Origin: a virus | Length of the DNA stretch: 64,000 nt | Virus record (IMG/VR): IMGVR_UViG_3300023179_006341 | Coordinates: 15,520-79,519 of that record | Strand: one strand, 5' to 3' | In this document: piece by piece, positions 1,109-36,247 of the stretch | Layout of the letters: each line of letters opens with the position of its first letter | Numbering within the stretch: position 1 is the first letter of the stretch | Translations under genes and position numbers: made by a program | The notes under the pieces: generated by a model | The model's input: only the letters and a program-made list of their open reading frames with translations | The model's database searches: none | What the model was told of the DNA's origin: nothing

Positions 1109-1762
1109 ATGCTTACAAGAGAGTTCATTCAAGAAGGTGTCAACGATCCTAATATTTTTAAAGCTGTGTTTATGGCAGGTGGGCCTGGCTCAGGTAAGAG
1201 TTTTGTCGCACGTCAGTTAGGATTACAAGCAGCAGGGTTACGCACCATCAATAGTGATGATGCATTTGAGTACCTACTAAGAAAACATCAACTTGACCCT
1301 AAAATGCCACCTGAAGAACAGGAAAAACGTGATATTATTAGACAACGTGCTAAAGATATTACTTCTACTAAACGATCACTTGCCATACAGGGTCGTTTAG
1401 GATTAATCATAGATGGTACTGCTAAAAATCCCGAAAAGACAGCATCAGTTAAACAAGGATTAGAAGCACTAGGTTATGACACCATGATGATATTTGTTAA
1501 TACAAGTTTACCTGTTGCTTTAGAGCGCAATCGTATGAGAGCAAGAAGCGTACCTAATGAAGTTGTAAAAAAAGCACATGAAGAAGTTCAACTAGGCAAA
1601 GAAGGATTAGAAAAAGTTTTTGGTAGCAGTTTTGTACAAGTTTTAAATGATATGGAACCTGATTTTAAACCTGCATACAAAAAATTACAATCATTTTTAA
1701 GAAAACCATTATCACCAAATGCCCAAGAATGGGTAAACATGCATACACAGCCCAAAAAATAG
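1109..1762 (+). CDS. P-loop kinase (zeta-toxin/AAA_33-like) with capsid-targeting-like N-terminus
   Basis: GGPGSGKS Walker A, IIDGT, RNxxR lid; N-terminus MLTREFIQE. Confidence 0.75.
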   Translation: MLTREFIQEGVNDPNIFKAVFMAGGPGSGKSFVARQLGLQAAGLRTINSDDAFEYLLRKHQLDPKMPPEEQEKRDIIRQRAKDITSTKRSLAIQGRLGLIIDGTAKNPEKTASVKQGLEALGYDTMMIFVNTSLPVALERNRMRARSVPNEVVKKAHEEVQLGKEGLEKVFGSSFVQVLNDMEPDFKPAYKKLQSFLRKPLSPNAQEWVNMHTQPKK

Positions 1763-1827
1763 TAATTTTTTTGTGCAGTTGCAAAATATAAATATTAGCT
1801 TATGTAAGTTTATTATAAGGAACTATT

Positions 1828-2730
1828 ATGACAATTACTACAAAATTAACCATTGCTGACAAAGCTGTGGATACAACTTACCAAGATGTAACAGGAACGA
1901 CAAGTGGTGCAGGTACAGGGGCAAAATTCGATGTAACCAAAACCAATGGTGTATATACAGTAAAATTAGATTCTGCAACAGCAAGTTCAGGAACAGGTTA
2001 TGTAGCAGGTGATACTATCACTATCCCAGGCGCAACCCTTGGGGGCACATCAACTAATAACTTGATTGTAACGGTAGCTACCGTAGGAACAAGTGGTAAA
2101 ATTGCAACATTTGGTGCAGTTGGAACAGGACGTGTAGGTGATGGTGACATTGATGTAATGTTTGAAGTAACAGGAAGCAATGCCAAAGCTGAAGTATATG
2201 CACTAACAGGCAAAAAAGCTGACTTTAGTGTTACAGTTGGTGAGACAGGTGTTGTTACTGTAACACATCCTGATCTTGACAATGTTGAACTCACTATGAA
2301 AGACATTGAACGTCTATCATTTACAGACTCATCGATTGCTTTTGATGTAAAAGGTAGTGCAGGTGAAGTATACGCTTTATTATGCGCAGCACTTGGTAAA
2401 AATGATGTTACTCCTGCTTTAGTTGGTAAATATCTTAAGTTGGCTGATTCAGGTATGACAGATACACAGATAGCTGCTGAAATACTTTCCTCAAAAGACT
2501 ATGAACTAGATGCATTAGGTTTAGGTAACGAAACCTTTGTTAAACAAGTATGGAAAAATGTTACAGGTGAATTGCCTAGCTTAGAAAATCTAAGAGCATT
2601 TACTAAAGTTTTAGATGATAAAGTTTATTCTAAAGCAGAATTACTTGAAGCTGCTTCTAACTTAACAGTTTTCCGTGATGAAGATCATATTGACTTAGTT
2701 GGTATGACAAAAATTGATTTTATCCCCTAA
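1828..2730 (+). CDS. Gly/Thr-rich surface-type protein with C-terminal DUF4214-like domain
   Basis: GTGY-x-GD-x-I repeats; IERLSFTD..AFD..AGEVYAL and FVKQVWKNV resemble DUF4214/S-layer C-termini. Confidence 0.6.
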   Translation: MTITTKLTIADKAVDTTYQDVTGTTSGAGTGAKFDVTKTNGVYTVKLDSATASSGTGYVAGDTITIPGATLGGTSTNNLIVTVATVGTSGKIATFGAVGTGRVGDGDIDVMFEVTGSNAKAEVYALTGKKADFSVTVGETGVVTVTHPDLDNVELTMKDIERLSFTDSSIAFDVKGSAGEVYALLCAALGKNDVTPALVGKYLKLADSGMTDTQIAAEILSSKDYELDALGLGNETFVKQVWKNVTGELPSLENLRAFTKVLDDKVYSKAELLEAASNLTVFRDEDHIDLVGMTKIDFIP

Positions 2731-21463: not shown

Positions 21464-21718
21464 ATGAACAAATTACTAGTTATTGGTGCAGTAGTTTTGT
21501 TAGCAGGATGTGCATCAAGCAAAGATCAACTATACTATGATGCTGCTAAAGCTATTAGCAAAGACAATACCATGAGTCAAACTGCTTGTTGGGCAGCTAT
21601 TTCAGATATTGCCAAAGGTGGTGGTGAAGGTGCTAAAGTTGGTGCAATTAGTCTTGCTGACAAGTGCAAGAACGAAACCATGAAGATTGAACGTCCTAGA
21701 AATTGGATTGGATTATAA
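21464..21718 (+). CDS. small lipoprotein
   Basis: LAGC lipobox, AAGGA RBS. Confidence 0.7.
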   Translation: MNKLLVIGAVVLLAGCASSKDQLYYDAAKAISKDNTMSQTACWAAISDIAKGGGEGAKVGAISLADKCKNETMKIERPRNWIGL

Positions 21719-22474
21719 TAGTTTAGCTATTTGTATAGCTAGTTCATCATTACGTGGTGCATCAGGTAAATCGTTATCGTTAATATCACGATATCCAATG
21801 ATTGGAAACTCTACGTTTTCATTTCTAATAAATCGTTGTATTAGTTCTTTTGGTGCAGCAATACCATCAGCATCCATTAATTGACCATTAGGCAATTCTA
21901 ACACAGCATGATCTGCACGTTTGCCATACGGTGTGTCTGCAATTAGTACAACCACTTTACCGCCATATTTTTTCTGTAGTGCTTGGGCAAAAACTACACA
22001 CCCACCGTCAAACGGTCCGCTATCCGTGTGGTGTACTAATAATGTATATATTTTGTTCTTATTTTTAAATGGAAATTTACCTTCATGTATGATTTTTCTA
22101 GCTATTATACCATGACCAACAGGATATTCTTTATTAAACCTAATAGGTTGTAGCATAGGGTATAGGTATTTTGTTGTACCACATTGTATATCAAACTTAG
22201 AACCACGTGGTACAAGGTGTTTACGCTCTAGTTTTCTAAATGTTTCTTCATCTACAACAATAGGTTCGCCAACAATGACTGAACCTATAGCAACTGCCTT
22301 ACCTGTACCTGTACGAACGATGCCAACACGTTTACCTATGTATGGGTTTAAAGATGGTCCACGCCTACTTTCGTAATACTTTTTACCATCTACAATAAGA
22401 TCAGCATAGTGTATATCACCATCGCTACGTATGTTTATGCCAATGGATGGTATATCAAACTCATTAAACTTCAT
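21713..22474 (-). CDS. ASCH-like domain + papain/transglutaminase-like domain protein
   Basis: YADLIVDGKK..ESR (ASCH); after IHE: GGCVVFAQAL..HAV..DADG (Cys-His-Asp). Confidence 0.6.
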   Translation of the reverse strand: MKFNEFDIPSIGINIRSDGDIHYADLIVDGKKYYESRRGPSLNPYIGKRVGIVRTGTGKAVAIGSVIVGEPIVVDEETFRKLERKHLVPRGSKFDIQCGTTKYLYPMLQPIRFNKEYPVGHGIIARKIIHEGKFPFKNKNKIYTLLVHHTDSGPFDGGCVVFAQALQKKYGGKVVVLIADTPYGKRADHAVLELPNGQLMDADGIAAPKELIQRFIRNENVEFPIIGYRDINDNDLPDAPRNDELAIQIAKLL

Positions 22475-22494: not shown

Positions 22495-23355
22495 TTAAAT
22501 TACAAATATTTTACCAACACTAGAGTTTAAAACGTCATCAAACATATAATTCATATCATTAGCTAATCGTTCAGATGCTTCCTTTCGTTCATTTTCATCA
22601 CGATATTCAGGTTTAATATTTAAATACTGTGTTGGATTACCAAAAACTTTACGTCCATATCCTAGGTTAGTTGGTAAGGGATTTAGTGTTACAGTGCCTG
22701 TACCTAAATATTGTGCAAATAATTCATACAAAAATTCATAAGGTCTACGAATTTGTCCTGTGCGACTACTGCGCTGTGTACCAATAGCATTGAATAATGC
22801 ATTGTATTCAGGAGTTAATTCTAAACTAAAGTTAGTATTAAATCTTGCTGATATCCTGCTGTAGTATTCTGCGAGCATATTGTTTACAGCACTAAAAAAA
22901 TGCTTTTCAGCTTCTGACCAAGTACTCCATCCTCTATTGTTTCTTGTACCTGCTTGTATAGCATGTCCAAAACGATGTGCCATTATCCATGGTGTAAGCA
23001 TCACTCTAGCATCACCTTTATTACCAACAAAGACTACGGTTATTGCGTCATCACTTCCATCAATGATTTGATCAGATTGCTTTCCAAAAATAGTTCTAAT
23101 TTGATCAGTTGTCATTGGGCCATATTCTATATATTTGCCTGTGCCACTGATGTTACTAAAAAATAATCTAAAATCATATGGAGTTTTTTCAAAAAACTTT
23201 TGTGTTTTTAACTTATTAGTAGGATGTGGAACTAATCTTCTATCAACAGGATTAAATGGTCCTGATTTTGCAAAATCCCCCATCGGTTGGTAAGTGGACA
23301 ATGCCATTTCATCAATGTCATCACTTGATTCAGTAATAAATTCAGTAGCTCTCAT
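22495..23355 (-). CDS. putative internal head protein with degenerate HxxxH zincin motif
   Basis: N-terminus MRATEFITE; TPWIMAHRFGHA..ELFAQY. Confidence 0.6.
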   Translation of the reverse strand: MRATEFITESSDDIDEMALSTYQPMGDFAKSGPFNPVDRRLVPHPTNKLKTQKFFEKTPYDFRLFFSNISGTGKYIEYGPMTTDQIRTIFGKQSDQIIDGSDDAITVVFVGNKGDARVMLTPWIMAHRFGHAIQAGTRNNRGWSTWSEAEKHFFSAVNNMLAEYYSRISARFNTNFSLELTPEYNALFNAIGTQRSSRTGQIRRPYEFLYELFAQYLGTGTVTLNPLPTNLGYGRKVFGNPTQYLNIKPEYRDENERKEASERLANDMNYMFDDVLNSSVGKIFVI

Positions 23356-23387: not shown

Positions 23388-24851
23388 ATGGATAAAAAGC
23401 ACAAAAAATTACTAAAGTTTACTGATTGGGTTATTGGTCGTTTAGGCATAAAAAATAAACCACAGATACGCTTTAGTGATGACAAATCGGAAGTTACCAA
23501 ACATAGAACATTTGGTTCGACCACCCCTAATAATACCATATGGGTGCATGTTGGTGACCGTAATACAGCAGATGTTATGCGTACATTATGCCATGAATTA
23601 GTACATGCAAAACAATTTGAAATTGGTACCGCTAAAGCAAAGATGGCTCCAAAGCGTGAACAAGGCATAGAAGATGAGGCCAATGCAGTAGCAGGACGTA
23701 TGATGCGTAAGTATGGTAAGATGGATGCCACCATTTATGAGAGTAAAGAACGTGCATGTTGTGCAGAATTACGTCAAGGTTTACTTAAGTTAGAAAAGAC
23801 TGATTACGATACGATTGATCGTTTAATGAAGAAAATAGCCAAAAAGCATAACATTACTCCAAAACAATTACATGATTACTTTGTTGAAACACATGGTGTT
23901 ATACCTGATACATGGATTAAAAACAAGAAGAAAGAGTTAAAAGAAAGTGATTTAGGCGAATATAAAATTGTTAATATTCCTGAATTTAGGATACAGGAGT
24001 TGATTAAAAGCGGTAATGAACACAAAGATACGATGAAAATTATTAAATCACCTGTAAGTGATTTATTTAGAGTGAGATTAGATATAGAACATCCATATCG
24101 TGATTATTTTTTATATGATAAGAAAAATGATGTGTGTGTTGGTGCAGTATCTATTGAAACTGTTACTTCAATCCCAAGAAAAGCTTTTAATGCTATATTA
24201 AAAACTAATGTAGCTGTTGTTAGCCCACATATTGTATTGGATAAAGCATACCGTCAAAGTGGGTTAGGCAGTAGAATATATTCTAGTTTTTTATATAGTA
24301 AAAATTGGGTGTTTATTACGGATAGACATACTGAAGCAGCATCTAAGTTATGGAATGCTTTAAGTAGTAAAAATGGTTTTGTGACATTATTTTATGATGT
24401 TGTCCAACAGAAAGTAGTTAATGATGTAAACGAAAATACCTTTCGTTTAATTGGTGCACCTGAACATTTTAAAATTAAGTTATCAGAAAGTCGTGAAGGG
24501 TCATTAACGCATGAAGTAGCAGATAGTTTACCACATGCTTATGTATTACCTGACATTAATAGTGGTAATCCATATTTACAATACAAGTTTGGGGTGGCTA
24601 TTGCTTCAGCACGTGGCGCACAATCACGTAAAGATGATAATATTAACCCATTTGATGAAAACGGTATGACAGACGTATTTTCAGATAAAGAATTTGTAGT
24701 AAGTTTTGACCCACATATTGATGAAATTATTACTGCAGCATTGAAAAAAATTGGTATGCCTAATAACAAAAAGCAAGTTGGGGTAAAAGGTAGTAAAGAA
24801 AGCAATGATGTTGCCAAAGTAAGCCCTGTTATAGGATTTAAGGGGTTCTAA
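23388..24851 (+). CDS. modular protein: HExxH peptidase-like / helical / GNAT-like / C-terminal module
   Basis: TLCHELVH..E.EANA; YRQSGLGSRIY and AASKLW; modules separated by IYES, LKES, LSES. Confidence 0.7.
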   Translation: MDKKHKKLLKFTDWVIGRLGIKNKPQIRFSDDKSEVTKHRTFGSTTPNNTIWVHVGDRNTADVMRTLCHELVHAKQFEIGTAKAKMAPKREQGIEDEANAVAGRMMRKYGKMDATIYESKERACCAELRQGLLKLEKTDYDTIDRLMKKIAKKHNITPKQLHDYFVETHGVIPDTWIKNKKKELKESDLGEYKIVNIPEFRIQELIKSGNEHKDTMKIIKSPVSDLFRVRLDIEHPYRDYFLYDKKNDVCVGAVSIETVTSIPRKAFNAILKTNVAVVSPHIVLDKAYRQSGLGSRIYSSFLYSKNWVFITDRHTEAASKLWNALSSKNGFVTLFYDVVQQKVVNDVNENTFRLIGAPEHFKIKLSESREGSLTHEVADSLPHAYVLPDINSGNPYLQYKFGVAIASARGAQSRKDDNINPFDENGMTDVFSDKEFVVSFDPHIDEIITAALKKIGMPNNKKQVGVKGSKESNDVAKVSPVIGFKGF

Positions 24852-24852: not shown

Positions 24853-25527
24853 ATGAAAATCGTAGAAATTATTAATGAAGATACAGTTAATGAAATAAAT
24901 TGGCGTAAAGCTGCTGCTACAGGTGCAACCGCATTGGCTGCGATGGGTGCATTAGGCAAAGCAGATGCAAGCGACAATACTAGAAGGGTAAGTCCACAAG
25001 CAGATGGCTCAATGAGCCAAAGTTTTGCACAGCAAGTTGCTGCAAACGCACCGAAGATACAAGTAGTTAAACCATTAGCCAATGATTTTGAACAAATTGT
25101 CTATAAAGATACACATAGTAATAGATTTCTTAATGGGGTAAGAGATACTGCAGATGGTACTATTATATTACAAAGTGGTGCTGATAGTTTTCAAATTATA
25201 AGAGTTGCTAATGGTAAGGAAACAATTGATTATGTTAGTTCTAGAGTTTTGGGAAATGATACAAAAGCAGCTTTACAATCAATAGCTAACAAATCAGATT
25301 CACAGCCAATGGCTCAACCTACTCAAAATGTTTCAGTTAAAGGAAATACACTAAGCTACAATGGAAAAGACTATAACATTGTTAGAATTAACAAAGATGG
25401 TTTACAGCCAAGGATAAGCAGGTTTGATGCTAAAGTATTAGTAGCATATCCTGATTTAGGAATTAGAAGCTTAGGATCTGCTAATGCAACTTTAGCAGGT
25501 GATACTGCTTACGTTTATATGGACTAA
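24853..25527 (+). CDS. putative internal head protein with cryptic hydrophobic helix
   Basis: MKIVEIINE..VNE-INWRKAAATGATALAAMGALG. Confidence 0.65.
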   Translation: MKIVEIINEDTVNEINWRKAAATGATALAAMGALGKADASDNTRRVSPQADGSMSQSFAQQVAANAPKIQVVKPLANDFEQIVYKDTHSNRFLNGVRDTADGTIILQSGADSFQIIRVANGKETIDYVSSRVLGNDTKAALQSIANKSDSQPMAQPTQNVSVKGNTLSYNGKDYNIVRINKDGLQPRISRFDAKVLVAYPDLGIRSLGSANATLAGDTAYVYMD

Positions 25528-25528
25528 C

Positions 25529-25963
25529 ATGAGAATATACGAAATATTAAAAGAAGATGCGGAAGACCGCCCACATTTATCAAAAGATCAGCTTGATGCG
25601 GTTGAACGTTTTGCTGATAAGTTATGGGAAAAATTAGGTATCGATGTAAAATTTGGTAGTCATTTTTTAGAACGATTATATCGTCGTGAAAATGATCCAC
25701 CCATTTCAGGGGCAGAATTAGTTCGTTTATTTAAACAAGAGTATCAAAAATATGGTAAAGAGATTGCATCATTACCACCTGAAACTGAAGGTGTGTTTAT
25801 GGATTTATTGACTAACGTAAACTTACCCTTTGTTATTAAGCAACGTGACGAAGATGAACCAAAGAAAATATTAGGGCAAACGATTATGCGTAAACCTAGT
25901 AATACAGTAAAGGGTGAATTTGTGCCTAAAGGTAAACCTTATAAAATTGGTAGAACGGATTAA
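25529..25963 (+). CDS. putative internal head protein
   Basis: Start at MRIYEILKE; HFLERL..R.N. Confidence 0.65.
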   Translation: MRIYEILKEDAEDRPHLSKDQLDAVERFADKLWEKLGIDVKFGSHFLERLYRRENDPPISGAELVRLFKQEYQKYGKEIASLPPETEGVFMDLLTNVNLPFVIKQRDEDEPKKILGQTIMRKPSNTVKGEFVPKGKPYKIGRTD

Positions 25964-25970
25964 ATACAAT

Positions 25971-26342
25971 ATGCGAGCAAAAGAATTTATAACAGAACAA
26001 AACAGTATTGGCGAACCACCTGTTCGTGCAAAAGAAGCTTCACGTGGTTTACATAAATTTCGTGACTTAGAAGGTATGGATCGTATTTACGAACTTAACC
26101 GTGTGATGATGGCAGTTGCCTGTACTGATGGAACTAAACCCGTAACGCTAGATTCTGAAAGTTATACAGGGCGTTACAATACTGCACATCCTTATACAAA
26201 ACAAGAACAAGATATGTTAAAAGTGGCATATGCTGCCGTAGGGTCAGATATGCATGATTTTAATGATGGTGATATGCGTAGTTTAGAAGTTAAAGATACA
26301 AATAAAACAAGCCCAATTCAGTCATTCAAAGGCTTCAAGTAA
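25971..26342 (+). CDS. putative internal head protein, paralogous to the last module of 23388..24851
   Basis: MRAKEFITE; ends SPIQSFKGFK. Confidence 0.65.
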   Translation: MRAKEFITEQNSIGEPPVRAKEASRGLHKFRDLEGMDRIYELNRVMMAVACTDGTKPVTLDSESYTGRYNTAHPYTKQEQDMLKVAYAAVGSDMHDFNDGDMRSLEVKDTNKTSPIQSFKGFK

Positions 26343-26392
26343 AAAATTATCTCCGTCATGCAACAGCATAAGTAGTTACACAGAGGACTACT

Positions 26393-27088
26393 ATGAAAAA
26401 TATTGATATTAACAAAACAATCGATGGTGTTAAATTAAAATGGTACCATGAATGGTTAGCTACTCATATCTATGATGAAGGTGAAAGTGGCTTTCATGAA
26501 CAACTTACAAGACAGGTTGTAACAAAGTATGTTGACCCTATTCAATTACCTAAAGATGCTAAAATTTTAGACATGGGCTGTGGTCCAGGCTACTTTATGA
26601 ACGAAATGAAGCAACGTGGTTATACCAATTACCTTGGTATTACCTTAAGTCAAGGTGATATTGATATATGTAATAAAAATGGACATAAAGTTGAGTCATA
26701 CGATTTGAGCTTTTTACCTCAAGAAAAGGGATATATAGATGAGTCAGTTGATTTTATCTTTTGTCGCCATGCATTAGAACATAGCCCATATCCATTGTTT
26801 ACTTTGGTTGAATATAATCGTGTGCTAAAACAAGGTTCTAAATTATATATTGAAGTACCCGCACCTGATTGTGAACGTATGCATGAATTTAACATTAATC
26901 ACTATAGCATTTTTGGTGAACGTATGTTAGCAGCTTTACTACAGCGTACAGGATTTACAATTAATTTGTTTGAAAATTTAGAATTTGATCTTAATATGGG
27001 TCAAAATGAAGATGGTACACCACGTGCAGTACGTGAAAAGTTTTACTGTATCGTTGCTACAAAGGCTAGACCACTCGATTTAAAATAA
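26393..27088 (+). CDS. class I SAM-dependent methyltransferase
   Basis: ILDMGCGPG, DFIFCRHALEH, RVLKQG. Confidence 0.88.
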   Translation: MKNIDINKTIDGVKLKWYHEWLATHIYDEGESGFHEQLTRQVVTKYVDPIQLPKDAKILDMGCGPGYFMNEMKQRGYTNYLGITLSQGDIDICNKNGHKVESYDLSFLPQEKGYIDESVDFIFCRHALEHSPYPLFTLVEYNRVLKQGSKLYIEVPAPDCERMHEFNINHYSIFGERMLAALLQRTGFTINLFENLEFDLNMGQNEDGTPRAVREKFYCIVATKARPLDLK

Positions 27089-27105
27089 CACTCATAAATA
27101 TCTTT

Positions 27106-27300
27106 ATGAGTGATTTAGATGATTTAAGAAAATTGGCAGGTATTACCCTGCCAAATTCTTCTGATTATGGTGCAGCGATTAGTATGTCTGCTACCCAAAA
27201 AGCGCAAATAATGCGAGAGAAAAATATTAGGCCTGGCGATCCTGCATGGTTTAAGTTATGGTTTTCCCAAACACATCTAACAGGAGAAAAACCAATTTAG
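27106..27300 (+). CDS. small late protein
   Basis: CATAAATA upstream; LRKLAGI; IRPGDPAWFKLWF. Confidence 0.65.
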   Translation: MSDLDDLRKLAGITLPNSSDYGAAISMSATQKAQIMREKNIRPGDPAWFKLWFSQTHLTGEKPI

Positions 27301-27326
27301 ATAAATAAATTAATAGAGAAACTATT

Positions 27327-29168
27327 ATGGCAGAACCTAATCCATCAAATGTAGCCCCATGGTATTTACGTAATATCAATCAAGCACTAGCTTTAGATGA
27401 AGATAGTGGAAATGTTTTTGTAAGAACGGGATTTCAGGGTAATATAATTATTTCAGGTAATGTAAATATTCCTGGCACTGTTACGGTAGATAGTTCTCCC
27501 GAAGATCCTGTGCATGTTCACTTAGATGAAATCGGAACATCGGGTATTCTTAATGTACCTTATATGCCAATCGGAGGTAATGTAGTAGTAACATCAGGCA
27601 ATGTCAACGCTAATGTATCGGGAAATGTAGGTATTACAGGTAATGTTAACATCGGTACTATGCCAAATGTTAACGCAAACATTACTAGTAATGTAACAGT
27701 AGTTGATGGAGGTGGTAGTTTAACAGTTGATGGTAATGTAGGTATTACAGGCAATGTTAATATTGGTACAATGCCAAATGTTAATGCTTTAGTAACAGGA
27801 AATGTAACTTCCACATTAAGTGGCAATTTAGCAGGTATTACAGGAAATGTAACAGTAGTTGATGGAGGTGGTAGTTTAACAGTTGATGGTAATGTTGGTG
27901 TGACAGGTAATGTCAATATAGGCACCATGCCTAATGTTAATGCCAGCGTATCAGGCAATGTAAGCATAACTAACAATGCTAATGTAGTATTAGGTGGTAC
28001 TAATTTAGACGCATTTGGTCGTTTGCGTGTAAGTAATCCTGTTACATTATTTGATTCTCAGAATCGTTACTTAGATGGTCAACAATTTAGCACTATAACT
28101 GCAGGTGGTGGCTTAAGAACTTATGTTCAAAATGAGAGTAGTTTTAATTTAGCAGTGGGAACTGCCAATGGTGATAGTGTTATCACGCAATCATATACAA
28201 CACAAGCGTATCAACCTGGTAAAAGTTTATTAGCACTCAATACATTTGCGTTTGCTAGTGCTAAACCAAATTTAAGACAACGAGTGGGATATTTTACAAG
28301 TCAAAATGGTGTATTTTTTGAACAAGATGGTAGCACATTGTATATGGTAGTTAGAAGTTATACTACAGGTGCTGCTGTAGACACTAGAGTAGCACAAAGT
28401 AGTTGGAACGGTGATGCACTAGATGGAAATGGTCCTAGCGGAATTACATTAGATCCTACACTTGTTCAAATATTTTGGTTAGACATTGAGTGGTTGGGTG
28501 TAGGCAACGTACGCACAGGCTTTGTGATAAATGGACAATTTATAGTTTGCCATACATTTACACATGCTAATGTCGTAGGAAATACAAAAGTATACATGAC
28601 AACTGCTACTCTGAACCCAAGATATGAAATTACTAATACAGGAATAACAGGTAGTGCTAGTACGATGAAGCAAATCTGTAGCACAGTAATGAGCGAAGGT
28701 GGCTATAATCCTAGCGTAAGCATACAATATAGCACCAATGGCACAAATGTAACTAGAGTATCAGGGTCAAATACGTTAACAAGTTTGACAAGCATAAGAT
28801 TGAACCCTAGTTATCCTGATGCAGTTGTACTTCCTGCGCAAGTTGATTTATTATTAATTGATACAAGGTATGGGCAGTTTCAATTGATCGAAAATGCTAC
28901 ATTAGGTAATGCAGTATGGAGCAATGCTAGTGCCACAAGTGTAGTTCAAACTAGCGTTACTACCGATATAATAACTAATGGTAATGTAGTTTATGCAGGG
29001 CTTACTAGTAGTAGAGACAGCCTTGAGATCAGCGAGGACATAGCAAAAAGATTACAATTAAAAAGGTATGCGAACGGTAGTCCTATAACATTGACATTAG
29101 CCGTTTCTTATACAGGGACTAATACTGATGTACTATGGAAGCTAGGTTGGGAAGAAATTACTAATTGA
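27327..29168 (+). CDS. putative virion structural protein with GNV repeats
   Basis: GNVGITGNVNIGTMPNVNA repeats, DAFGRLRVSNP, C-terminal WEE. Confidence 0.7.
   Translation: MAEPNPSNVAPWYLRNINQALALDEDSGNVFVRTGFQGNIIISGNVNIPGTVTVDSSPEDPVHVHLDEIGTSGILNVPYMPIGGNVVVTSGNVNANVSGNVGITGNVNIGTMPNVNANITSNVTVVDGGGSLTVDGNVGITGNVNIGTMPNVNALVTGNVTSTLSGNLAGITGNVTVVDGGGSLTVDGNVGVTGNVNIGTMPNVNASVSGNVSITNNANVVLGGTNLDAFGRLRVSNPVTLFDSQNRYLDGQQFSTITAGGGLRTYVQNESSFNLAVGTANGDSVITQSYTTQAYQPGKSLLALNTFAFASAKPNLRQRVGYFTSQNGVFFEQDGSTLYMVVRSYTTGAAVDTRVAQSSWNGDALDGNGPSGITLDPTLVQIFWLDIEWLGVGNVRTGFVINGQFIVCHTFTHANVVGNTKVYMTTATLNPRYEITNTGITGSASTMKQICSTVMSEGGYNPSVSIQYSTNGTNVTRVSGSNTLTSLTSIRLNPSYPDAVVLPAQVDLLLIDTRYGQFQLIENATLGNAVWSNASATSVVQTSVTTDIITNGNVVYAGLTSSRDSLEISEDIAKRLQLKRYANGSPITLTLAVSYTGTNTDVLWKLGWEEITN
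27690..27895 (+). repeat. 50-bp identical intragenic repeat (27690-27739 / 27846-27895)
   Basis: AATGTAACAGTAGTTGATGGAGGTGGTAGTTTAACAGTTGATGGTAATGT twice. Confidence 0.85.
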
Positions 29169-29174
29169 CTGTAA

Positions 29175-30107
29175 ATGAATCATTCAAACACTGTAAAATT
29201 AATTAAAAATCCATACGAAGCAACAGTTTTTAAAAACGACAACGAATTACAAGATTTTATAAAATGTTGTGACCCACAAACAGGTTATCTATATTTTATG
29301 GATAATTTCTTTATTATTCAACACCCAACCAAAGGTAGTATGAATTATCATCCGTGGTCATATCAAAAACGATTAATAGAAACTTATCATAATTATAGAT
29401 ATTCAATAGCGTTGATGCCACGTCAAAGTGGTAAAAGTACAAGTGCAGCAGGTTATCTTTTATGGTATGCAATGTTTGTTCCTGATAGCACAATTTTAAT
29501 AGCTGCACATAAGTATGCAGGTTCACAAGAAATTATGCAACGTATACGATATGGTTATGAAAATTGTCCATTACACATTAAAGCAGGGGTTGTTACATAT
29601 AATAAAGGATCACTAGATTTTGAAAATGGCAGTAGGATTATTTCCGCTACTACAACAGAAACTACAGGTCGTGGTCTCTCAATATCATTATTATACTTAG
29701 ATGAGTTTGCGTTCGTAAGACCAAGCATTGCTAAAGAATTTTGGACTTCTATTGCACCAACCTTAGCAACAGGTGGTAAAGCAATCATAACAAGCACACC
29801 AAATAGTGATGAAGATCAATTTGCTATAATTTGGAAAGGTGCAAATAAAACACAAGATGAATATGGTAATACAACAGAATTGGGAGTAAATGGATTTAAA
29901 GCATATAAAGCACATTGGAGCGAACAACCAGGTCGTGACACCGCTTGGGCTGACAACATGAAAGCACAATTAGGTGAAGAACGTTTCAGACGAGAAATTG
30001 GGTGTTTTTCGGGTAAGACAAATATAAGACTTAAAGACTCAACAGGTAAAATATTTACAACAACCATGGAAGAATTAGAAAAAATGTTAGCAATTCGTAA
30101 TAGCTGA
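29175..30107 (+). CDS. terL: terminase large subunit N-fragment (ATPase) fused to a 34-aa N-intein
   Basis: PRQSGKS Walker A, LDEFAF Walker B, TSTP; FRREIG|CFSGKT intein start at 30003. Confidence 0.92.
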   Translation: MNHSNTVKLIKNPYEATVFKNDNELQDFIKCCDPQTGYLYFMDNFFIIQHPTKGSMNYHPWSYQKRLIETYHNYRYSIALMPRQSGKSTSAAGYLLWYAMFVPDSTILIAAHKYAGSQEIMQRIRYGYENCPLHIKAGVVTYNKGSLDFENGSRIISATTTETTGRGLSISLLYLDEFAFVRPSIAKEFWTSIAPTLATGGKAIITSTPNSDEDQFAIIWKGANKTQDEYGNTTELGVNGFKAYKAHWSEQPGRDTAWADNMKAQLGEERFRREIGCFSGKTNIRLKDSTGKIFTTTMEELEKMLAIRNS

Positions 30108-30115
30108 TGAAATAG

Positions 30116-30123
30116 TATAAATA
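30116..30123 (+). promoter_or_regulatory. late promoter for the HNH gene and the IntC-TerL fragment
   Basis: Exact TATAAATA. Confidence 0.7.
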
Positions 30124-30128
30124 AATAT

Positions 30129-30950
30129 ATGTTACAAAATAAATATCAAAAATGGTATATGAAAATAATATATCATGCTACAAATCAAAAAAGACCACAA
30201 AAAGGTCATGAAATGCATCATATCATCCCAAAATGTATGGGTGGTTTAAACAAAAAAGAAAATTTAGTTAGACTTACATTACGAGAACATTATATTTGTC
30301 ATTTGTTATTGCCAAAGTTTACAACAGGCGATGACCAAAGAAAATTAAAATTTGCTCTTTGGTGTTTTATTAATAAGTGGGGAAGAAAATCTTGCAAATT
30401 TAAAATGAATAGTAAAATGTACGAAAAATTAAAGATTGAAATTTCTGATCAAATTTCTAAACTTAACAAAGGTAAAATTAACCCCCCTTTAAGCGTGGAA
30501 ATGATTAAAAAATTTTCTGAACGAATGAGAGGTGATTCTAACCCCATGTATGGAAAATTGGGTTCTGAAAATCCAAATTTTGGTAAGAAACGGCCTGGTA
30601 TAGGTGGTAGAAAAAAAGGCACTACATGGTCAGACGAAGAGCGTTCTATACATCTTAAGATACGATCAGAAATAGGATATTATAATTATTTAAAAGATCC
30701 GAAAAGAGGAGAAAAAATAAGTAATTCACAACGAGGAAGAATTGGGACAGCTTTGGGAAAAGTTTGGTATAACGATGGTATTAATGAATACTATGGAAAT
30801 CAAGTTCCTATAGGATTTAATAAAGGTAGATTGATTTCAAATTCTTCTAAAAAAGGCATGAAATGGTTTACTAATGGGGTAGTAAGTAAACAGTTTAAAG
30901 AAGATATGCAACCACAGGATTTTATTCGTGGAAGAATTATTAAAAAATAA
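30129..30950 (+). CDS. free-standing HNH homing endonuclease with NUMOD3-like motifs
   Basis: HHIIPKCMGG..NLVRLT.REH..H; NPMYGK; W(Y/F)xxG repeats. Confidence 0.88.
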   Translation: MLQNKYQKWYMKIIYHATNQKRPQKGHEMHHIIPKCMGGLNKKENLVRLTLREHYICHLLLPKFTTGDDQRKLKFALWCFINKWGRKSCKFKMNSKMYEKLKIEISDQISKLNKGKINPPLSVEMIKKFSERMRGDSNPMYGKLGSENPNFGKKRPGIGGRKKGTTWSDEERSIHLKIRSEIGYYNYLKDPKRGEKISNSQRGRIGTALGKVWYNDGINEYYGNQVPIGFNKGRLISNSSKKGMKWFTNGVVSKQFKEDMQPQDFIRGRIIKK

Positions 30951-32013
30951 CTTAGGGCTACAAATACTTACTGATACAGGTTGGCAATCTTTTAGCGGCA
31001 TTGTCAAAAAAGGTATTAAACACACTATAACTATAGAATTAGAAAATATCTCAGTAACTTTAACACCCGATCATAATGTTTTTTTGGAAAATTTGACAAA
31101 AATACCTGCGAACAACCTTAGAAAGGGTGACAGTGTTTGTACATTAAATGGGCCGCAAATTGTAAAAAATATTTATGAGCATTGTTTAGAAGTTGTTTAC
31201 GATATAGTTAATGCAGGTTCCAATAAAAGATTTTATGCAGATGATATACTTTGTTCAAACTGTGAATTTATTATTGGTGATGAAACACTTATTAATCCTC
31301 TTATATTGAATACTCTTGAAGGTATTGAACCAATTGAAAGAATGGGTCAAGTACGTTGGTTTTCTAAACCGCAAAAGGGTAATATTTATTGTGTAGGATT
31401 AGATCCAAGTTTAGGTACAGGAAGTGATCCTGCTGCAATACAAATATTTGAGGCTAATACAACTAAACAAGTTGGTGAATGGAAACATAATCGTACTACA
31501 ATACCTGAACAAATTAAATTATTAGCTAAGATCATTGATTATATTGTAGATATCACAAAAGAACCAAATAATTTATATTATAGTTTAGAAAATAATACTA
31601 TAGGTGAAGCAGCATTGATCTCATTAGCAGAATATGGTGAAGAAAACATCAAGGGAACAATGTTAAGTGAACCTAAACAAGTAGGATCGACTAGAAGATA
31701 TCGTAAAGGATTTAATACCACACAAAAAAGTAAATTAGCAGCATGTTCAAAGTTAAAAAATTTAATTGAAAGTGGAAAAATGTCACTTAAGAGTAATGCT
31801 TTGATATCTGAATTAAAGTCATTTGTTGCTGCAGAAGGTAGTTATGCTGCTAAAATTGGAGAAACTGATGATTTAGTTATGGCAACATTATTAGTTGTAA
31901 GAATATTTCAACATTTACAAAACTATCATAGTGATTTAGACACGCATCTTAAAGATCATAGTGAATATATTGAACCAATGCCTTTTATAATGACATTAAG
32001 TTCTGTAAGCTGA
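30928..32013 (+). CDS. terL: 111-aa C-intein fused to terminase large subunit nuclease domain
   Basis: TPDH block B, VYD block F, LCSN|CEF junction (Cys+1 at 31261); GLDPSLG, LENN, DDLVMA RNase H motifs. Confidence 0.9.
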   Translation: MEELLKNNLGLQILTDTGWQSFSGIVKKGIKHTITIELENISVTLTPDHNVFLENLTKIPANNLRKGDSVCTLNGPQIVKNIYEHCLEVVYDIVNAGSNKRFYADDILCSNCEFIIGDETLINPLILNTLEGIEPIERMGQVRWFSKPQKGNIYCVGLDPSLGTGSDPAAIQIFEANTTKQVGEWKHNRTTIPEQIKLLAKIIDYIVDITKEPNNLYYSLENNTIGEAALISLAEYGEENIKGTMLSEPKQVGSTRRYRKGFNTTQKSKLAACSKLKNLIESGKMSLKSNALISELKSFVAAEGSYAAKIGETDDLVMATLLVVRIFQHLQNYHSDLDTHLKDHSEYIEPMPFIMTLSSVS

Positions 32014-32040
32014 TAAATACACTATAAAAGTGGATTTATC

Positions 32041-34344
32041 ATGCCAAAAAATAACGATTTAATTAATGTAGATTTAGAAAAATTTCTTGATGCTAATAAT
32101 TTAAATGCTATTCCATATGATAGTAGTGGAAAACAAGTACCCATTCCCGATGAAGCAGAATTATTTCAATTTAAATTTGCTTCCAATGGTGATGAAAAAG
32201 GTACAGCTACTGTATCGATTGATGGTACAAAAACTTTAAATGTTTATTACGATGATGCAATTATGACAGAAAACAATGCCTCTGACGATTGGTTTGATTT
32301 TATTAAACGATTAAAACGATTTGCAATGACGCATCAGTTAGATTTTAAAACTAAAAATATGGATAGGTTAGCTACTGATATGAAAAAACGTGAACATCAA
32401 AAAAAATTAGATGAAGGTTATTATGGGACACGCCATACTAGTTATAGCGATAAAAACCCAGGCACCGTCAAAATGATTCTTAAACACAATCGCCCACTTG
32501 AAGAAACTGATGCAAGATTTAGAAACATTCAAAAGATTTTTTTAGAAACTGATACAGGAGAACGTTTTTTACTTGATACAAAAAAGCCAAATATAGCTAG
32601 AGCATTTGCAAGACATTTAGCTGAAGGTGGTCGTTATAATGATGAAAGATGGAATCATATTACTCAAATAGCTGAAGATATTAATCGTTTAGGTGGTTTT
32701 GTACGTGCTACACGTAATAAACAATTTAATGAAAGTGCAGTAAAATTAGTTAATGAAGCACAAAATCATTATCAATCTTTGCGTGAAACAATAAAACAAA
32801 TACAAGGTTCACGAGGATATAACAAATATTTTGAAAGTTGGAAACCGACTTTAAATGAAGATGATCATGATAATTCAATATCAGAAATGTTTTTAACACA
32901 GAGACTTGATCCACGAGTTGAAAGTGCAATACCTGTATTAAATCGTTTATCAAAAAATATAACAGAAATGTCTGAAGTAAATGAATTTACTGAATGGGCA
33001 AGTAATATAGTTCATGAAGTATTACATCCAACTGCAGAAGGTTCACTTGATGATTTAGTAGATTTAGTTGGTGCTGATAGTGAGTTTATGACTCTTGGTC
33101 CTGATGGAAAAAATGCAATCAATGAAATAGAAGGTATTATTAATGAACCTGCATTAAATTCACGCTTACAAAAAGCGGGAATGAGTAAACCTGATCAAGA
33201 CGCACGTCCTATAATTATTGGTTGGATGCAAGAAAATGCCAAGGATAAACATTATGAAGAAATTTTGGCTAAAATTGAAACTGAGCAACCTGCACCTAAA
33301 ATAACTAAACCTGCACCCCAACCTAAAAAAGAAACCCCACCTGATATACCTCCACCCCCACCTCCTGAAGTAGCTAGGGAAGACTATGATCCACGTTTAT
33401 CACAAAAAACACAGATTGCAGGTACATTGCCAACATATCGCCACGCTAAAGCTGTACTAGACAAGTTAAACGGTGTTGAAGGTAAAACACTTGACTTTGG
33501 TGCAGGACTTGGTTTAGGTTCAGCAGAAATTGGTGCAGATAGTTATGAAATGCATCCTAAAGCAGGGTTCAAACCTAATTTTGATCGTGTAGATTCTATT
33601 CCCGATGAATCATATGCTAAAATTGTCTCGCTAAATGTTCTTAATGTCATACCAAATGACAAGGGATGGCGTGACGCAGCAGTTAAAGATATTGGTCGTA
33701 TTTTGATGCCAAATGGTACTGCCTTAATTACTACTCGTGGCAAAGATGTATTAGCTGCAAAAGGTGAACCACAAGATGAACCAAATAGTATTATCACAAG
33801 TGCAGGAACTTTCCAAAAAGGATTTACTCCACAAGAGTTAGCAAGTTATGTACAAAATGTATTAGGTAGTGGGTTTAAAGTTAAAGCAGTTAAAGTTGGT
33901 AGCGCACCTGCTGCTATCTTAGTTACAAAAGGTGGAGAACAAGTTAACGAACTCAAGGGTAAATTACCAACACCTGATGAAATGAGAACATTGTTACAAA
34001 AACAAAAGAAACGCTTTGATGATCAAGGTTTTGTACGTGCTGCTGATGATACAGATAAATTAGCAAAAACTTTTTATAAGCCTGAACCATCTAAAAAAAT
34101 AGATACAATAATGAAAGAATTTGCTGAATCATTAGATGAAGCTAAGGATAAAGAACCATCTGTGAAAATACGTAATCCTGTAGCAAAAAATGCTATGGCA
34201 GGTATTGGGGGTGGTGCGGCAGGACAACATAAAGATAAGAAAAAAGCTGATCAACGTGGTGATGTAAAGCATAAAAAAGATAGAATCCCAATGGATCTTG
34301 ATGAAGGTTCACTTGATAGGATCAGAAAACTATCAGGGTTATAA
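32041..34344 (+). CDS. large modular late protein with an inserted SAM-methyltransferase module
   Basis: LDFGAGLG..NVLNVI module at about 33382-33951; many [LIV]xE sites; ends RIRKLSGL. Confidence 0.7.
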   Translation: MPKNNDLINVDLEKFLDANNLNAIPYDSSGKQVPIPDEAELFQFKFASNGDEKGTATVSIDGTKTLNVYYDDAIMTENNASDDWFDFIKRLKRFAMTHQLDFKTKNMDRLATDMKKREHQKKLDEGYYGTRHTSYSDKNPGTVKMILKHNRPLEETDARFRNIQKIFLETDTGERFLLDTKKPNIARAFARHLAEGGRYNDERWNHITQIAEDINRLGGFVRATRNKQFNESAVKLVNEAQNHYQSLRETIKQIQGSRGYNKYFESWKPTLNEDDHDNSISEMFLTQRLDPRVESAIPVLNRLSKNITEMSEVNEFTEWASNIVHEVLHPTAEGSLDDLVDLVGADSEFMTLGPDGKNAINEIEGIINEPALNSRLQKAGMSKPDQDARPIIIGWMQENAKDKHYEEILAKIETEQPAPKITKPAPQPKKETPPDIPPPPPPEVAREDYDPRLSQKTQIAGTLPTYRHAKAVLDKLNGVEGKTLDFGAGLGLGSAEIGADSYEMHPKAGFKPNFDRVDSIPDESYAKIVSLNVLNVIPNDKGWRDAAVKDIGRILMPNGTALITTRGKDVLAAKGEPQDEPNSIITSAGTFQKGFTPQELASYVQNVLGSGFKVKAVKVGSAPAAILVTKGGEQVNELKGKLPTPDEMRTLLQKQKKRFDDQGFVRAADDTDKLAKTFYKPEPSKKIDTIMKEFAESLDEAKDKEPSVKIRNPVAKNAMAGIGGGAAGQHKDKKKADQRGDVKHKKDRIPMDLDEGSLDRIRKLSGL

Positions 34345-34345
34345 T

Positions 34346-36247
34346 ATGTCAGAACTAATATTGTTGGAATCATCTAAACCATCTGTTGGTCGTGAATTCC
34401 AACACTTAGAGGATCTTATATACATTGAAGGTAAACGTGGTATTAAACGTGTACTAGAATGTATAGCAGGTATTATTAAGCGTCAACCACTTGAAGTAAA
34501 ATGGGATGGAAGTCCTGCAATATTATTCGGTAGAACTGATAATGGGCGTTTTCATTTTGGTGACAAGTATAGTCGTGATATTGTAGATAATCCACGTGCA
34601 GTATATGAGCAATATATTGGACGCAAGCCTAAAAAAACATTTGAGCGTGAACAATTTGCACGTGATATGGCTGCATTGTTTGAAGTATATGAAGCAGCAA
34701 CACCAAAAGATTTTCGTGGTTTTTTAGAAGCAGGATTATTATATAAGAATTCACCTGCACTAACTGAAGATTGTTTTCAATGTAATCCAAACACAGTAAT
34801 TTACAAAATTAATAACAGTAGTAACTTGGGTAAGCGTGTTGCCAATAGTAAGAGTGGATGTGCGGCTACAGCATATTTTCAACATTTACCTGCCACAGGT
34901 GGTAGAAGATATCCTGTAGGCGATCATTCCAATCATTTTAATAGTAATGATGTAGTTATTATACCACCTTTGCACACAAGTGATACGGTGAGATTAGACC
35001 GTAGCATGTTAGAAAAATTATGGAATTTTGCTAAACAAAAACAACATAGTATTGATCAGTTTGTTGGACCACAAAACATTAAAAAAATGATTTATGAGTA
35101 TGTAAATAGTCAAGTAAGTGAAAATGAATTAAGTGCATTACATAATTTAGGTGATAATTTTACAAGATGGTCACGTGATAGTTTATCTGCAAAAGAACAA
35201 AATATATTGGCTGAACATTTAAAACAACACATAGATGGTGCCAATGATACGTTTAGGTTAGTACGTGCAACAATGAAATTAAAAGATATGATTGTTGACC
35301 AATTAGAAGAATCGACATTAAGTAAAATTGGTATACAAGCAGAATTACCTGATGGACAACGTGGTGGTGAAGGATTTGTCTATGATATTAATGAAGGTAT
35401 TAATCCTATCAAATTAGTTAAACGTGGATCATTTACACGAGCAAATAAATTTAAGAATGAGTCAAAATATTTAAAAGAGTCATTAAGTAGAAGTGGTAAA
35501 AGTGATCGTGCTGTCATTACTTTTGGTCGTTGTATGGGTCATCGTGGACATATGTATTTGGCTAATAGTGTGTTTACAACTGCTAAAGAACAAGGTGCAG
35601 ATCCATATATTATTGTAAGTCGTACATTGGGTGATGATGATCCACTGACTCCGAATGAAAAATTATCTATCTATCATAAAGTATTTCCAAATCATAAGCA
35701 TTGTTTTCAAGCTTCAGACGATAGTATGCCAACATTAATGAGTGCCTTAAAGAAATTAAATGAATTAGGATACAAGCATATTACTGCTATCTTTGGTAAT
35801 GATCGTGCTGATAGTATGAGTCATATTAAAGAATATAATGGGCGCAGTTATCAATTTGAAACATTAAACGTAATAAGTCGTCAACAAACTAATGATCCAT
35901 ACCGTAATATAAATGGACCACGTGGTACGGATATGCGTAATGTATTAAATAATCCAAATTTATCTGAAAAAGAAAAATTTGGATATTGGCGTAAATGTAT
36001 GAGTCCACAATTAAGTGATGATGATGTACAATATATAATGGATATAGTAAAAAAACGTATTGGACATAATTTAAATGAAGCAGATAATCCAATGTATATT
36101 GGTGGTAACACTAATAGCCCCATCCCAGGCACCCCTGAAGATTTAGCCGATACTAGAACACCTGAACAAAAACGCAAAGATGCCAAGCGAGCGATTAAGC
36201 AGGCACGAGAATTACGCAAATTTATGGGTCATAATGAAGTTCGTTAA
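34346..36247 (+). CDS. ligase-like (KxDG) domain + HxGH cytidylyltransferase-like domain
   Basis: KWDG, EGFV, KLV; FGR..HRGH, GNDR; start moved to MSELILLE. Confidence 0.72.
   Translation: MSELILLESSKPSVGREFQHLEDLIYIEGKRGIKRVLECIAGIIKRQPLEVKWDGSPAILFGRTDNGRFHFGDKYSRDIVDNPRAVYEQYIGRKPKKTFEREQFARDMAALFEVYEAATPKDFRGFLEAGLLYKNSPALTEDCFQCNPNTVIYKINNSSNLGKRVANSKSGCAATAYFQHLPATGGRRYPVGDHSNHFNSNDVVIIPPLHTSDTVRLDRSMLEKLWNFAKQKQHSIDQFVGPQNIKKMIYEYVNSQVSENELSALHNLGDNFTRWSRDSLSAKEQNILAEHLKQHIDGANDTFRLVRATMKLKDMIVDQLEESTLSKIGIQAELPDGQRGGEGFVYDINEGINPIKLVKRGSFTRANKFKNESKYLKESLSRSGKSDRAVITFGRCMGHRGHMYLANSVFTTAKEQGADPYIIVSRTLGDDDPLTPNEKLSIYHKVFPNHKHCFQASDDSMPTLMSALKKLNELGYKHITAIFGNDRADSMSHIKEYNGRSYQFETLNVISRQQTNDPYRNINGPRGTDMRNVLNNPNLSEKEKFGYWRKCMSPQLSDDDVQYIMDIVKKRIGHNLNEADNPMYIGGNTNSPIPGTPEDLADTRTPEQKRKDAKRAIKQARELRKFMGHNEVR

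Follow-up and report, generated by a model that had tools for sequence, protein, structure and literature searches.

Since the 1990s it has been known that phage T4 brings proteins into its prohead with a short capsid targeting sequence (CTS) that the prohead protease gp21 removes, and one of these proteins, Alt, shows that the cargo can be an enzyme. The subject here is a related arrangement, a nine-residue N-terminal leader common to otherwise unrelated genes together with the multi-module proteins that accompany it, found in a 64,000-nucleotide stretch of viral DNA (the window; bases 15520-79519 of the linear 79.5-kb IMG/VR contig IMGVR_UViG_3300023179_006341). In T4, the internal proteins IPI, IPII and IPIII as well as Alt carry the CTS and undergo gp21 processing (Mullaney & Black 1996; PMC3012670, PMC9026906). 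The CTS reads MKTYQEFIAE, and these first ten residues are enough for loading; positions 4 and 7 have a role in targeting and positions 8 and 10 in processing, and Asp at position 10 blocks cutting while loading stays intact (PMC9026906). The T4 internal proteins are diverse, and the leader is the only part they have in common (PMC3012670).

The locus resembles T4 in its short N-terminal leader common to unrelated proteins, in the motif [LI]-x-Glu for an S77-family protease, and in a lineage that possesses a T4-type portal, protease, scaffold and gp23 along with diverse, rapidly changing cargo. Its leader has the same core as the CTS, E-F-I-x-E/ (a slash marks a predicted cut), and is one residue shorter, nine against ten, and Alt offers a precedent for the enzyme-type modules of this phage. 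Unlike in T4, the cargo, known here from genes alone, is made up largely of modules of enzyme type, not of small basic proteins. One leader can be followed by several modules, separated by conserved and putatively cleavable joints at which insertion and exchange take place, and in some members no more than the targeting half of the leader is left.

Other phages also carry processed or packaged head proteins. In phiKZ, 201phi2-1 and SPN3US, many internal head proteins are cut after Glu in a three-residue motif by a homologous prohead protease; their propeptides are believed to direct proteins to the prohead, and some mature ejection proteins start with a transmembrane segment (PMC5694885, PMC10052503). 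The motif of the phiKZ-like phages is A/S/G-x-E and their propeptides, mostly longer than 100 residues, share no common short leader, whereas the residue three positions before the cut (P3) is aliphatic here and the leaders have nine residues. Assignment to the phiKZ type was rejected on these two features and on the T4-like replication and head genes of the lineage. Phage P1 packages DarA, DarB, Hdf and other proteins in its head (PMC9024508, PMC12810830). The resemblance to the Dar system lies in large enzymes that travel in the capsid and enter along with the DNA to counter host defence, a feature of phage P1 that would apply here by analogy. Dar loading follows an ordered hierarchy of protein-protein contacts, and it is not known to involve a common short cleavable leader or protease-delimited polyproteins. 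Full-text literature searches found no paper describing such leader/polyprotein systems. Three features are new: a nine-residue leader found throughout a clade of uncultured jumbo phages of about 355 kb, cargo of several modules whose conserved putative cleavage joints appear to double as exchange points, and a very large unannotated cargo family, the 270-amino-acid (aa) module.

CheckV puts the completeness of the contig at 23%, and all contig counts below cover the 115 open reading frames (ORFs) of this 79.5-kb fragment, about 23% of a phage of about 355 kb. T4-type genes in the window encode a gp32-like single-stranded DNA-binding protein (36393), UvsX (37661), UvsY (38976) and a DNA ligase (44902), and the nearest relatives of UvsX, at 64-68% identity, belong to the jumbo phages Vibrio 2.275.O, Atu_ph07, CBB and GAP32. 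The window is part of a T4-related jumbo phage of about 355 kb that is known from metagenomes. A megablast search of window positions 22000-37000 against cultured phages returned zero matches, that is, no close cultured phage at the DNA level. Comparisons were made with 54 related metagenomic loci, retrieved by a search with the 286-aa protein of ORF 22495 (ORFs are named by window position; Table 1). Two of these are complete genomes, G001 (359.6 kb) and G002 (355.0 kb, with terminal repeats).

Five of the contig ORFs (1109, 22495 on the minus strand, 24853, 25529 and 25971) match the strict pattern M-x-x-x-E-[FILV]-[ILV]-x-E at Met1, against an expected count of 0.024 and, over 2000 shuffles, a mean of 0.034 with a maximum of 2. 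The pattern is absent from the interior of the proteins of all 115 ORFs. The contig and the 54 loci, 866 kb together, contain 89 leader instances, every one at an ORF start and 0-28 residues past the upstream in-frame stop, and these are spread over 19 single-linkage clusters of cargo sequence. Their consensus is M-[RK]-A-x-E-[FI]-[IL]-x-E. With a looser pattern applied to 2353 ORFs, 111 matches fell in the nine-residue register, compared with none in an eight-residue and one in a ten-residue register. Among 75 unique leaders, P3 is I in 41, L in 30 and V in 4, and the residue before the cut (the P1 position) is E in all; the search pattern itself requires both positions, and the I/L/V split alone counts as a finding.

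An original prediction, made from the letters of the window without database searches, had proposed a common T4-like N-terminus for MLTREFIQE at 1109 (plus strand), MRATEFITE at 23355 (minus strand), MKIVEIINE at 24853, MRIYEILKE at 25529, MRAKEFITE at 25971, MSELILLE at 34346 and MKFNEF at 22474 (minus strand). All of these sequences occur at those positions. The first five fit the nine-residue pattern, and the last two fall outside it: position-weight scores are 12-26 for the five clear leaders, -22 for MSELILLE and +1.0 for MKFNEF. The likeness to the T4 CTS held up, both in the core sequence and in the register control. The fixed distance from Met1 supports a peptide-level N-terminal signal of the T4 CTS type.

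Two other leader types were seen among the relatives. At 277.3 kb in G002, near the terminase gene, ORF G002 +2 92429 begins with a ten-residue leader, MKSLKEYIAE/S, whose pattern is near-identical to that of T4 MKTYQEFIAE. Homologues of the 25529 module from another lineage (P0182-P0186) are long multi-module proteins headed by MSSIMKGI[TV](D)E/, a leader type that also occurs truncated as MKGIVDE/.

At the nucleotide level, every conserved leader position varies synonymously (GAA/GAG, TTT/TTC, ATT/ATA/ATC/TTA/CTA, AGA/CGA/AAA). With several synonymous codons in use at each conserved position, the constraint therefore acts on the peptide. This bears on an explanation in which the shared N-terminus is no capsid signal but a translation-start feature of late mRNAs with short leaders, a recombination cassette, or a tag for a modifying enzyme such as a radical-SAM maturase. 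The sequence ATAAATA, late-promoter-like by consensus match only, stands 5-21 nt before ORFs 1109, 22495 (minus strand), 27106, 27327, 32041 and 48915, and as a putative promoter it would suit late expression. Its distance from some leader-gene ATGs is only 5-7 nt (7 nt at ORF 1109), a spacing at which the mRNA would have almost no 5' leader, or none, and could not accommodate a Shine-Dalgarno sequence. Conserved 5' ends could moreover favour recombination, and the contig holds four radical-SAM ORFs. Yet synonymous change at every position places the conservation at the amino-acid level, the motif is missing from other genes that have this spacing, and no ATAAATA lies upstream of the leader genes 24853, 25529 and 25971; the leader is thus not a by-product of start context. 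The radical-SAM ORFs cluster at contig positions 5.4-9.5 kb, upstream of the window, with about 30 kb or more separating them from the cargo genes, and G002 has a single such ORF, at a distance of at least 136 kb; a link between the leader and a radical-SAM enzyme was rejected on these distances. A non-capsid origin would also leave [ILV]-x-E at the joints of fused homologues unexplained, and it is judged very improbable. The short ATAAATA spacing of 5-7 nt recurs before several ATGs of the window (1095-1108, 20631-20642, 23356-23368, 27094-27105 and 48901-48914).

Head genes of the T4 type are present in the relatives. G001, G002 and G003 all carry a Peptidase_S77 (PF03420) gene, with a match of about 3e-28 in each, and in G002 it occupies 236195-236833, between Portal_T4 (1.5e-104) and Gp23 (1e-100). 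The presumed scaffold of G002, encoded between the protease and capsid genes, contains 26 [ILV]-x-E sites in 366 aa, a density of 7.1 per 100 aa compared with 1.2 genome-wide. Four of the six such sites in the G002 capsid protein fall in the 42 residues preceding the Gp23 domain, and the other two in the remaining 355. Family membership and motif-rich substrates fit a gp21-like specificity of the relatives' protease. The scaffold sequence is that of a relative only, at about 50% identity.

Beside the G002 protease gene lie two small ORFs that begin MNIFE/ and MNKYEKLIE/. Glu-ended leaders on such core-type ORFs would suit a purely structural role, in which the cargo acts only in prohead assembly, like T4 gp67/gp68, and is degraded or expelled on maturation. 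The cargo consists instead of folded domains of enzyme type (kinase, DUF6267, nucleotidyltransferase, HExxH) in which, unlike in the scaffold, internal sites are not in excess, and modules change quickly from one near-identical phage to another, as suits genes for interaction with the host. A role confined to assembly appears quite improbable.

The joints between modules were examined where a module is adjacent to the leader in one phage and internal in another, by inspecting the residue aligned with the final Glu of the leader. Among 30 such junction events, [ILVM]-x-E ends exactly at that residue in 12 (null 1.4%) and within five residues of it in 23 (null 15%). The rule spans eight or more module families. 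Thus the 270-aa module follows PIDE/MAL and ELNE/APL when internal and FITE/APL behind a leader. The corresponding pairs are GVTE/A and TVVE/K against FINE/E for the INPDI module, QGVAE/E against FINE/G and DFLNE/K for WSQKYK, KLRE/S and QGVAE/G against FITE/S for DVPNExWL, LMKE/D against FLKE/N for TTLxxLY, and SMYE/S against FLRE/S for SPExxLAK. Within the window the rule covers IYE118, LKE186 and LSE367 of ORF 23388, IHE131 of ORF 21713 and LKE378 of ORF 34346. The putative cleavage motif thus coincides with module boundaries more often than expected by chance.

ORF 23388 shows how modules enter at these points. Its HELVH metallopeptidase-like module H is followed by IYE118/S, the helical module G, LKE186/S, the GNAT-like module X, LSE367/S and module C. 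About 20 relatives of some 245 aa have the simpler form H-IYE/[SG]RTGSL-C, P0014 reads H-IYE/-G-KLDE/-C, and in the window G and X are inserted exactly between IYE/ and LSE/. An empty tandem joint is present in P0008 and P0013 (IYEGKLSE/S and IYEGAKHEKIVSE/G). Across the linker alignment E118 is invariant and I116 and Y117 are at least 90% conserved, and neighbouring linker residues vary. Module G stands directly behind a leader in many relatives, for example MRYTEFIIE/SPALELAK. In L001 and L002 the module of ORF 22495 is 99% identical to that of the window, and the 23388 homologue there has 305 aa, of which only the first 212 residues are common (83% identity). Module content, as far as these genes tell, is turning over very fast between near-identical phages.

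The 270-aa module of ORF 22495 gives the broadest view of the joints. A profile search of 1.84 billion representatives recovered 1297 clusters (50% identity), including 374 with values below 1e-30, and the architecture figures rest on the best 150 of the 1297. Among those 150, the module ends at the C-terminus in nearly all, with a few exceptions that resemble truncated fragments; 84 have the module on its own, and in 66 it comes after 100-900 other residues. The motif [ILVM]-x-E directly precedes it in 46 of the 48 fused representatives with a located start, and 59 of 67 have L, V or I as P3 at this point. Double joints are frequent, as in GVAE/DTVDE/MAL, and the window equivalent is FITE/SSDDIDE/MAL. 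An N-terminus of the form M-[RK]-x-x-[DE]-[FILV] begins 61 of the 150, nearly all of those with [ILVM]-x-E by residue 8-14. The constant C-terminal position is as expected if new modules enter the joint between the leader and the 270-aa module.

The original prediction had also placed domain boundaries at this motif and expected module shuffling in related phages. The internal sites that it quoted are where it put them (E118, E186 and E367 in ORF 23388, E378 in ORF 34346 and E131 in ORF 21713), the junction events, the fused representatives and the nested 23388 series agree with the boundaries, and shuffling is seen in the arrangements of L025, P0014, P0173 and P0175. AlphaFold2 models agree in part. 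In the model of ORF 22495 (predicted local distance difference test score 88), residues 1-15 are disordered and the fold begins just past IDE16. For ORF 23388 the model is informative for residues 1-188, with H (1-112) and G (120-188) confident and dips in confidence at 111-120 and about 185-190, near E118 and E186; module X has no alignment depth and its model says nothing about the third boundary.

Together, these patterns make it most likely that the phage loads a changeable set of ready-made enzymes into its virion. The leader would work like the T4 CTS, recruiting otherwise unrelated late proteins to the prohead's scaffolding core, where a gp21-family prohead protease would remove it after its final Glu. 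The candidate cargo modules are a kinase, an ASCH domain, an HExxH peptidase-like, a GNAT-like, a DUF6267 ligase-like and a cytidylyltransferase-like domain, and the 270-aa module. They would be connected by short unstructured joints ending in [ILV]-x-E that most likely are cut by the same protease, so that one leader would load several separate proteins. The joints would also be permissive points for insertion, loss and exchange of modules between phages, and the proteins, once matured, would exit from the head together with the DNA, like T4 IPI and Alt. This combination of a CTS-like leader, a gp21-family protease and joints cut by that protease is considered probable. Packaging, leader removal, joint cutting, ejection and enzyme roles in the host are what we infer from gene arrangement and comparison.

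The strongest rival accepts the leader as a real targeting and cleavage signal and has the joints uncut: the cargo would be ordinary multi-domain proteins, and each joint motif the relic of a downstream leader that became fused. Several observations favour it or otherwise weigh against cleavable cargo. The cargo genes run head to tail with stop codons abutting the next ATG, which makes read-through fusion easy, and MDATIYE/S in ORF 23388 aligns with MRATEFLSE/S, the leader of a stand-alone homologue. Bare [ILV]-x-E occurs at 0.5-2.5 per 100 aa in cargo proteins (most at 1.3-2.5) against 1.6 in the contig. The enrichment that had been expected thus exists at junctions and was rejected for the cargo proteins as a whole, where density is at background; many copies lie inside folded domains, and the motif alone predicts nothing. 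The joint signal is the position of the motif, not its frequency. The contig, at 23% completeness, contains no protease gene (gp21 homologue), scaffold gene or capsid gene. The constant C-terminal position of the 270-aa module also fits a requirement unrelated to cleavage. ORFs 23388 and 32041 begin without a leader and are doubtful as loaded proteins for that reason, and ORF 21713 has the first half only.

What the relic explanation does not predict is the pattern of conservation. The joint Glu and an aliphatic P3 are kept over deep divergence, whereas the flanking linker residues are variable: E118 is invariant in 20 sequences of 48-63% identity, and the motif before the 270-aa module is retained across representatives that each come from a different cluster at 50% identity. 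Joints such as QGVAE/, TVDE/, LKE/ and LSE/ are unlike leader relics, complete internal leaders number zero, and the tandem sites GVAE/DTVDE/ and IYEGKLSE/ resemble the window spacer FITE/SSDDIDE/. Fusion scars without cutting are accordingly regarded as unlikely, and cutting at the joints stays the preferred reading.

A more far-reaching version of that reading is offered tentatively, as a possibility with somewhat less than even support. It describes a plug-in system in which the joints both separate the cargo and admit new effectors, supplied in fixed proportions, and in which RNA-repair-like, peptidase-like and acetyltransferase-like modules would act in the next host before any phage gene is expressed. 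The RNA-repair-like group would be the PNK-type kinase (PNK, polynucleotide kinase), the ligase-like DUF6267 and the nucleotidyltransferase. The 270-aa module, with its roughly 1300 clusters, would be the ancestral resident cargo, and the others would have been inserted ahead of it, between leader and module. The T4 CTS, a textbook curiosity, applies to Alt and a few small proteins; in this widespread uncultured jumbo-phage lineage the principle seems to be extended to modular enzyme delivery with the protease motif as punctuation. If this is true, virion-delivered effectors could be predicted from leader and joints in thousands of metagenomic phages, and new counter-defence or host-takeover enzymes would be indicated, including the unannotated family of about 1300 clusters. 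It would also provide a model from nature by which a single construct could supply several foreign proteins for packaging into T4-type capsids.

Table 1. Positions in the window of the leader-bearing and multi-module ORFs, their joint codons and adjoining late genes (a slash marks a predicted cut)
Feature	Position	Strand	Remarks
P-loop kinase ORF, AAA_33/Zeta-toxin/polynucleotide-kinase type	1109..1762	+	leader MLTREFIQE/G
ASCH + SGPFDGGC protein	21713..22474	-	half-leader MKFNEF (no cleavage Glu); IHE131/G between domains
E131 codon of ORF 21713	22082-22084		
286-aa protein with 270-aa module	22495..23355	-	leader MRATEFITE/, spacer SSDDIDE/, invariant AHRFGH
487-aa multi-module protein without leader	23388..24851	+	H 1-118, G 119-186, X 187-367, C 368-487
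E118 codon of ORF 23388	23739-23741		
E186 codon of ORF 23388	23943-23945		
E367 codon of ORF 23388	24486-24488		
Domain ORF with leader	24853..25527	+	leader MKIVEIINE/D; Ala/Gly-rich hydrophobic stretch precedes uncharacterised domain
135-aa module	25529..25963	+	leader MRIYEILKE/D
114-aa module	25971..26342	+	leader MRAKEFITE/Q
Virion structural protein adjoining the cargo cluster	27327..29168	+	phrog_1645 2.5e-101; cyanophage and HMO-2011 structural proteins match
Large terminase, two ORFs	29175..32013	+	Terminase_6N in the N-terminal ORF, Terminase_6C in the C-terminal ORF
NUMOD3 endonuclease ORF	30129-30950		between the two terminase ORFs
767-aa late protein without leader	32041..34344	+	virion-structural-type N-terminal domain, methyltransferase-like domain, C-terminal tail
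DUF6267 (ligase-like) + cytidylyltransferase-like protein	34346..36247	+	degenerate leader MSELILLE/S; LKE378/S; tail after LNE578/A
E378 codon of ORF 34346	35477-35479		

Labels that had been proposed for the modules stood to different degrees: the kinase, ASCH and DUF6267 matches exceed the Pfam cut-offs, and those to GNAT and the M78 zincin fall below. ORF 1109, which lies 20 kb away from the main cargo cluster, matches AAA_33 (4.5e-13, 50.2 bits against a cut-off of 27) and Zeta_toxin (1.9e-12, 47.5 against 22.3), and among PDB sequences it has a weak match to T4 PNK (1e-3). Kinase homologues follow comparable leaders elsewhere, namely MRALEFINE/ in L020, as the first module of a 1092-aa protein, MTTFKEYLLE/ in RsoM2USA and MIPFILKE/ in HTVC008M. 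Residues 1-118 of ORF 23388 contain HELVH and reach 17.7 bits for M78 (cut-off 22, E 0.003) and 22.6 for DUF3920 (cut-off 27.3), and three H-module homologues carry a precomputed PF06114 match. Residues 187-367 reach 13.8 bits for GNAT (cut-off 20.7, E 0.07).

The 270-aa module has no match in Pfam, PHROG or PDB sequences, a profile search of PDB gave nothing credible, and tblastn of the 286-aa protein against cultured phages returned no matches. Foldseek against PDB found none at E 0.001 or better. The VIA wide structural search reached Z of at most 4, its weak whole-length matches to the zincins PPEP-2/3 and lethal factor (LF) having Z 2.9-3.6, and the Atlas search produced only a weak ATLF lead. 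Where a zincin site would read HExxH, the corresponding region reads H-R-F-G-H in 25 of 25 aligned members.

Leaders are retained by homologues of the smaller single-module ORFs as well. Those of ORF 24853 keep it in L001 and L002, and those of ORF 25971 keep it at 43-46% identity in G002 (MKIREIITE/) and L053 (MRAREFISE/). Directly after the leader of ORF 24853, at window 24880-24975, lies the Ala/Gly-rich hydrophobic stretch WRKAAATGATALAAMGALGKADA. It is comparable to the transmembrane start of phiKZ-like ejection proteins and resembles in particular that of mature SPN3US ejection protein gp47. The module of ORF 25529 matches positions 488-595 of the 602-position phrog_23027, and elsewhere it stands at or near the C-terminal end of proteins of 425-1016 aa, after LDE/, FRE/, FKE/, VTE/, TNE/ or AVE/.

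In ORF 21713 the ASCH domain, scanned alone, scores 21.9 bits against a cut-off of 21.2. The SGPFDGGC domain occurs alone in relatives behind MNIAEIITE/SWPGRNRNRIY, MKVNDIILE/S, MKIHTIVNE/R, MRAKEFVAE/T and MRAQEFITE/Q, and in P0175 it comes after a nucleotidyltransferase, joined at ITE/S. All of these points align with window IHE131/GKFPFKNKNKIY. In P0173 this ASCH-DGGC protein begins with the complete leader MRAKDFITE/ and also has a WSNKYK mini-module; the window MKFNEF is therefore seen as a leader that lost its cleavage half. ORFs 21713 and 22495 form a two-gene minus-strand block (21713-23387) inside a plus-strand region, and the divergent 32-nt spacer at 23356-23387 has TAAATA on both strands. 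The block may be a local inversion that parted ORF 23388 from a leader.

Residues 19-367 of ORF 34346 match DUF6267 (4.6e-22, 79.3 bits against a cut-off of 27), the protein also matches the phrog_3041 cytidyltransferase at 1e-28, and phmmer against PDB found no matches. In L025 a gene of its own encodes each half of this ORF. DUF6267 there starts with a canonical leader, MRVSDLLLE/A, and the cytidylyltransferase-like module follows MRYTEFNE/A and is fused via VAE/ to modules G and H. This arrangement places ORF 34346 in the same module network, with LKE378/S as a boundary. The DUF6267 protein of HTVC008M begins MYNDLLVE/. In this Pelagibacter phage (L077, 104818-109011), DUF6267, a 171-aa ORF, the kinase with MIPFILKE/ and a 597-aa cytidylyltransferase-like protein adjoin one another; the ligase-like, PNK-like and nucleotidyltransferase genes look like a nucleic-acid repair set.

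The original prediction reached too far with its other proteins. The methyltransferase ORF 26393 has no leader and no cargo sign and is dropped from the list, and the start of ORF 23388 carries no leader. ORF 32041, likewise without one, matches a virion structural family in its N-terminal domain (phrog_13484, 'virion structural protein'; a PA5oct structural protein at 25% identity), and its methyltransferase match scores below the Pfam cut-off. The L002 homologue has a 170-aa insert ending VKE/A where the window has LDE700/A. Membership of ORF 32041 in the cargo set is uncertain.

Among cultured relatives, the strict nine-residue pattern occurs once in CBB and not at all in GAP32; with the pattern this rare, the published virion proteomes of both are therefore not directly transferable. 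The cultured jumbo phage RsoM2USA has an array of leader genes, 254-258, with MTTFKEYLLE/ on the kinase homologue and also MNQTFKQFLTE/, MKFSDYILE/ and MRLKQFLME/. One of ten abundant virion bands identified by LC-MS/MS in this phage is ORF257 (PMC8504454). It lies inside the array, an indirect hint that products of leader genes may reach the virion, and the ORF numbers of that paper were checked to equal the locus tags. The quoted mass of 17.57 kDa for ORF257 was considered as a sign that MFDMLKGLINAPITE is removed and was not used, as the full-length protein has 19.65 kDa and the fit is too loose.

A few further features of the window were recorded beside the cargo genes. The G002 terminase is one ORF of 527 aa, in contrast to the split arrangement in the window. 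ARAGORN predicts a permuted (two-piece) transfer-messenger RNA at 244-672, with the tag ANDDYFGEVRLAA followed by a stop. At 53952-55346, a NifU/IscU-like ORF shows its family match in two separated stretches with a homing-endonuclease match between them, an intein-like layout, and the G002 homologue is an uninterrupted protein of 130 aa.

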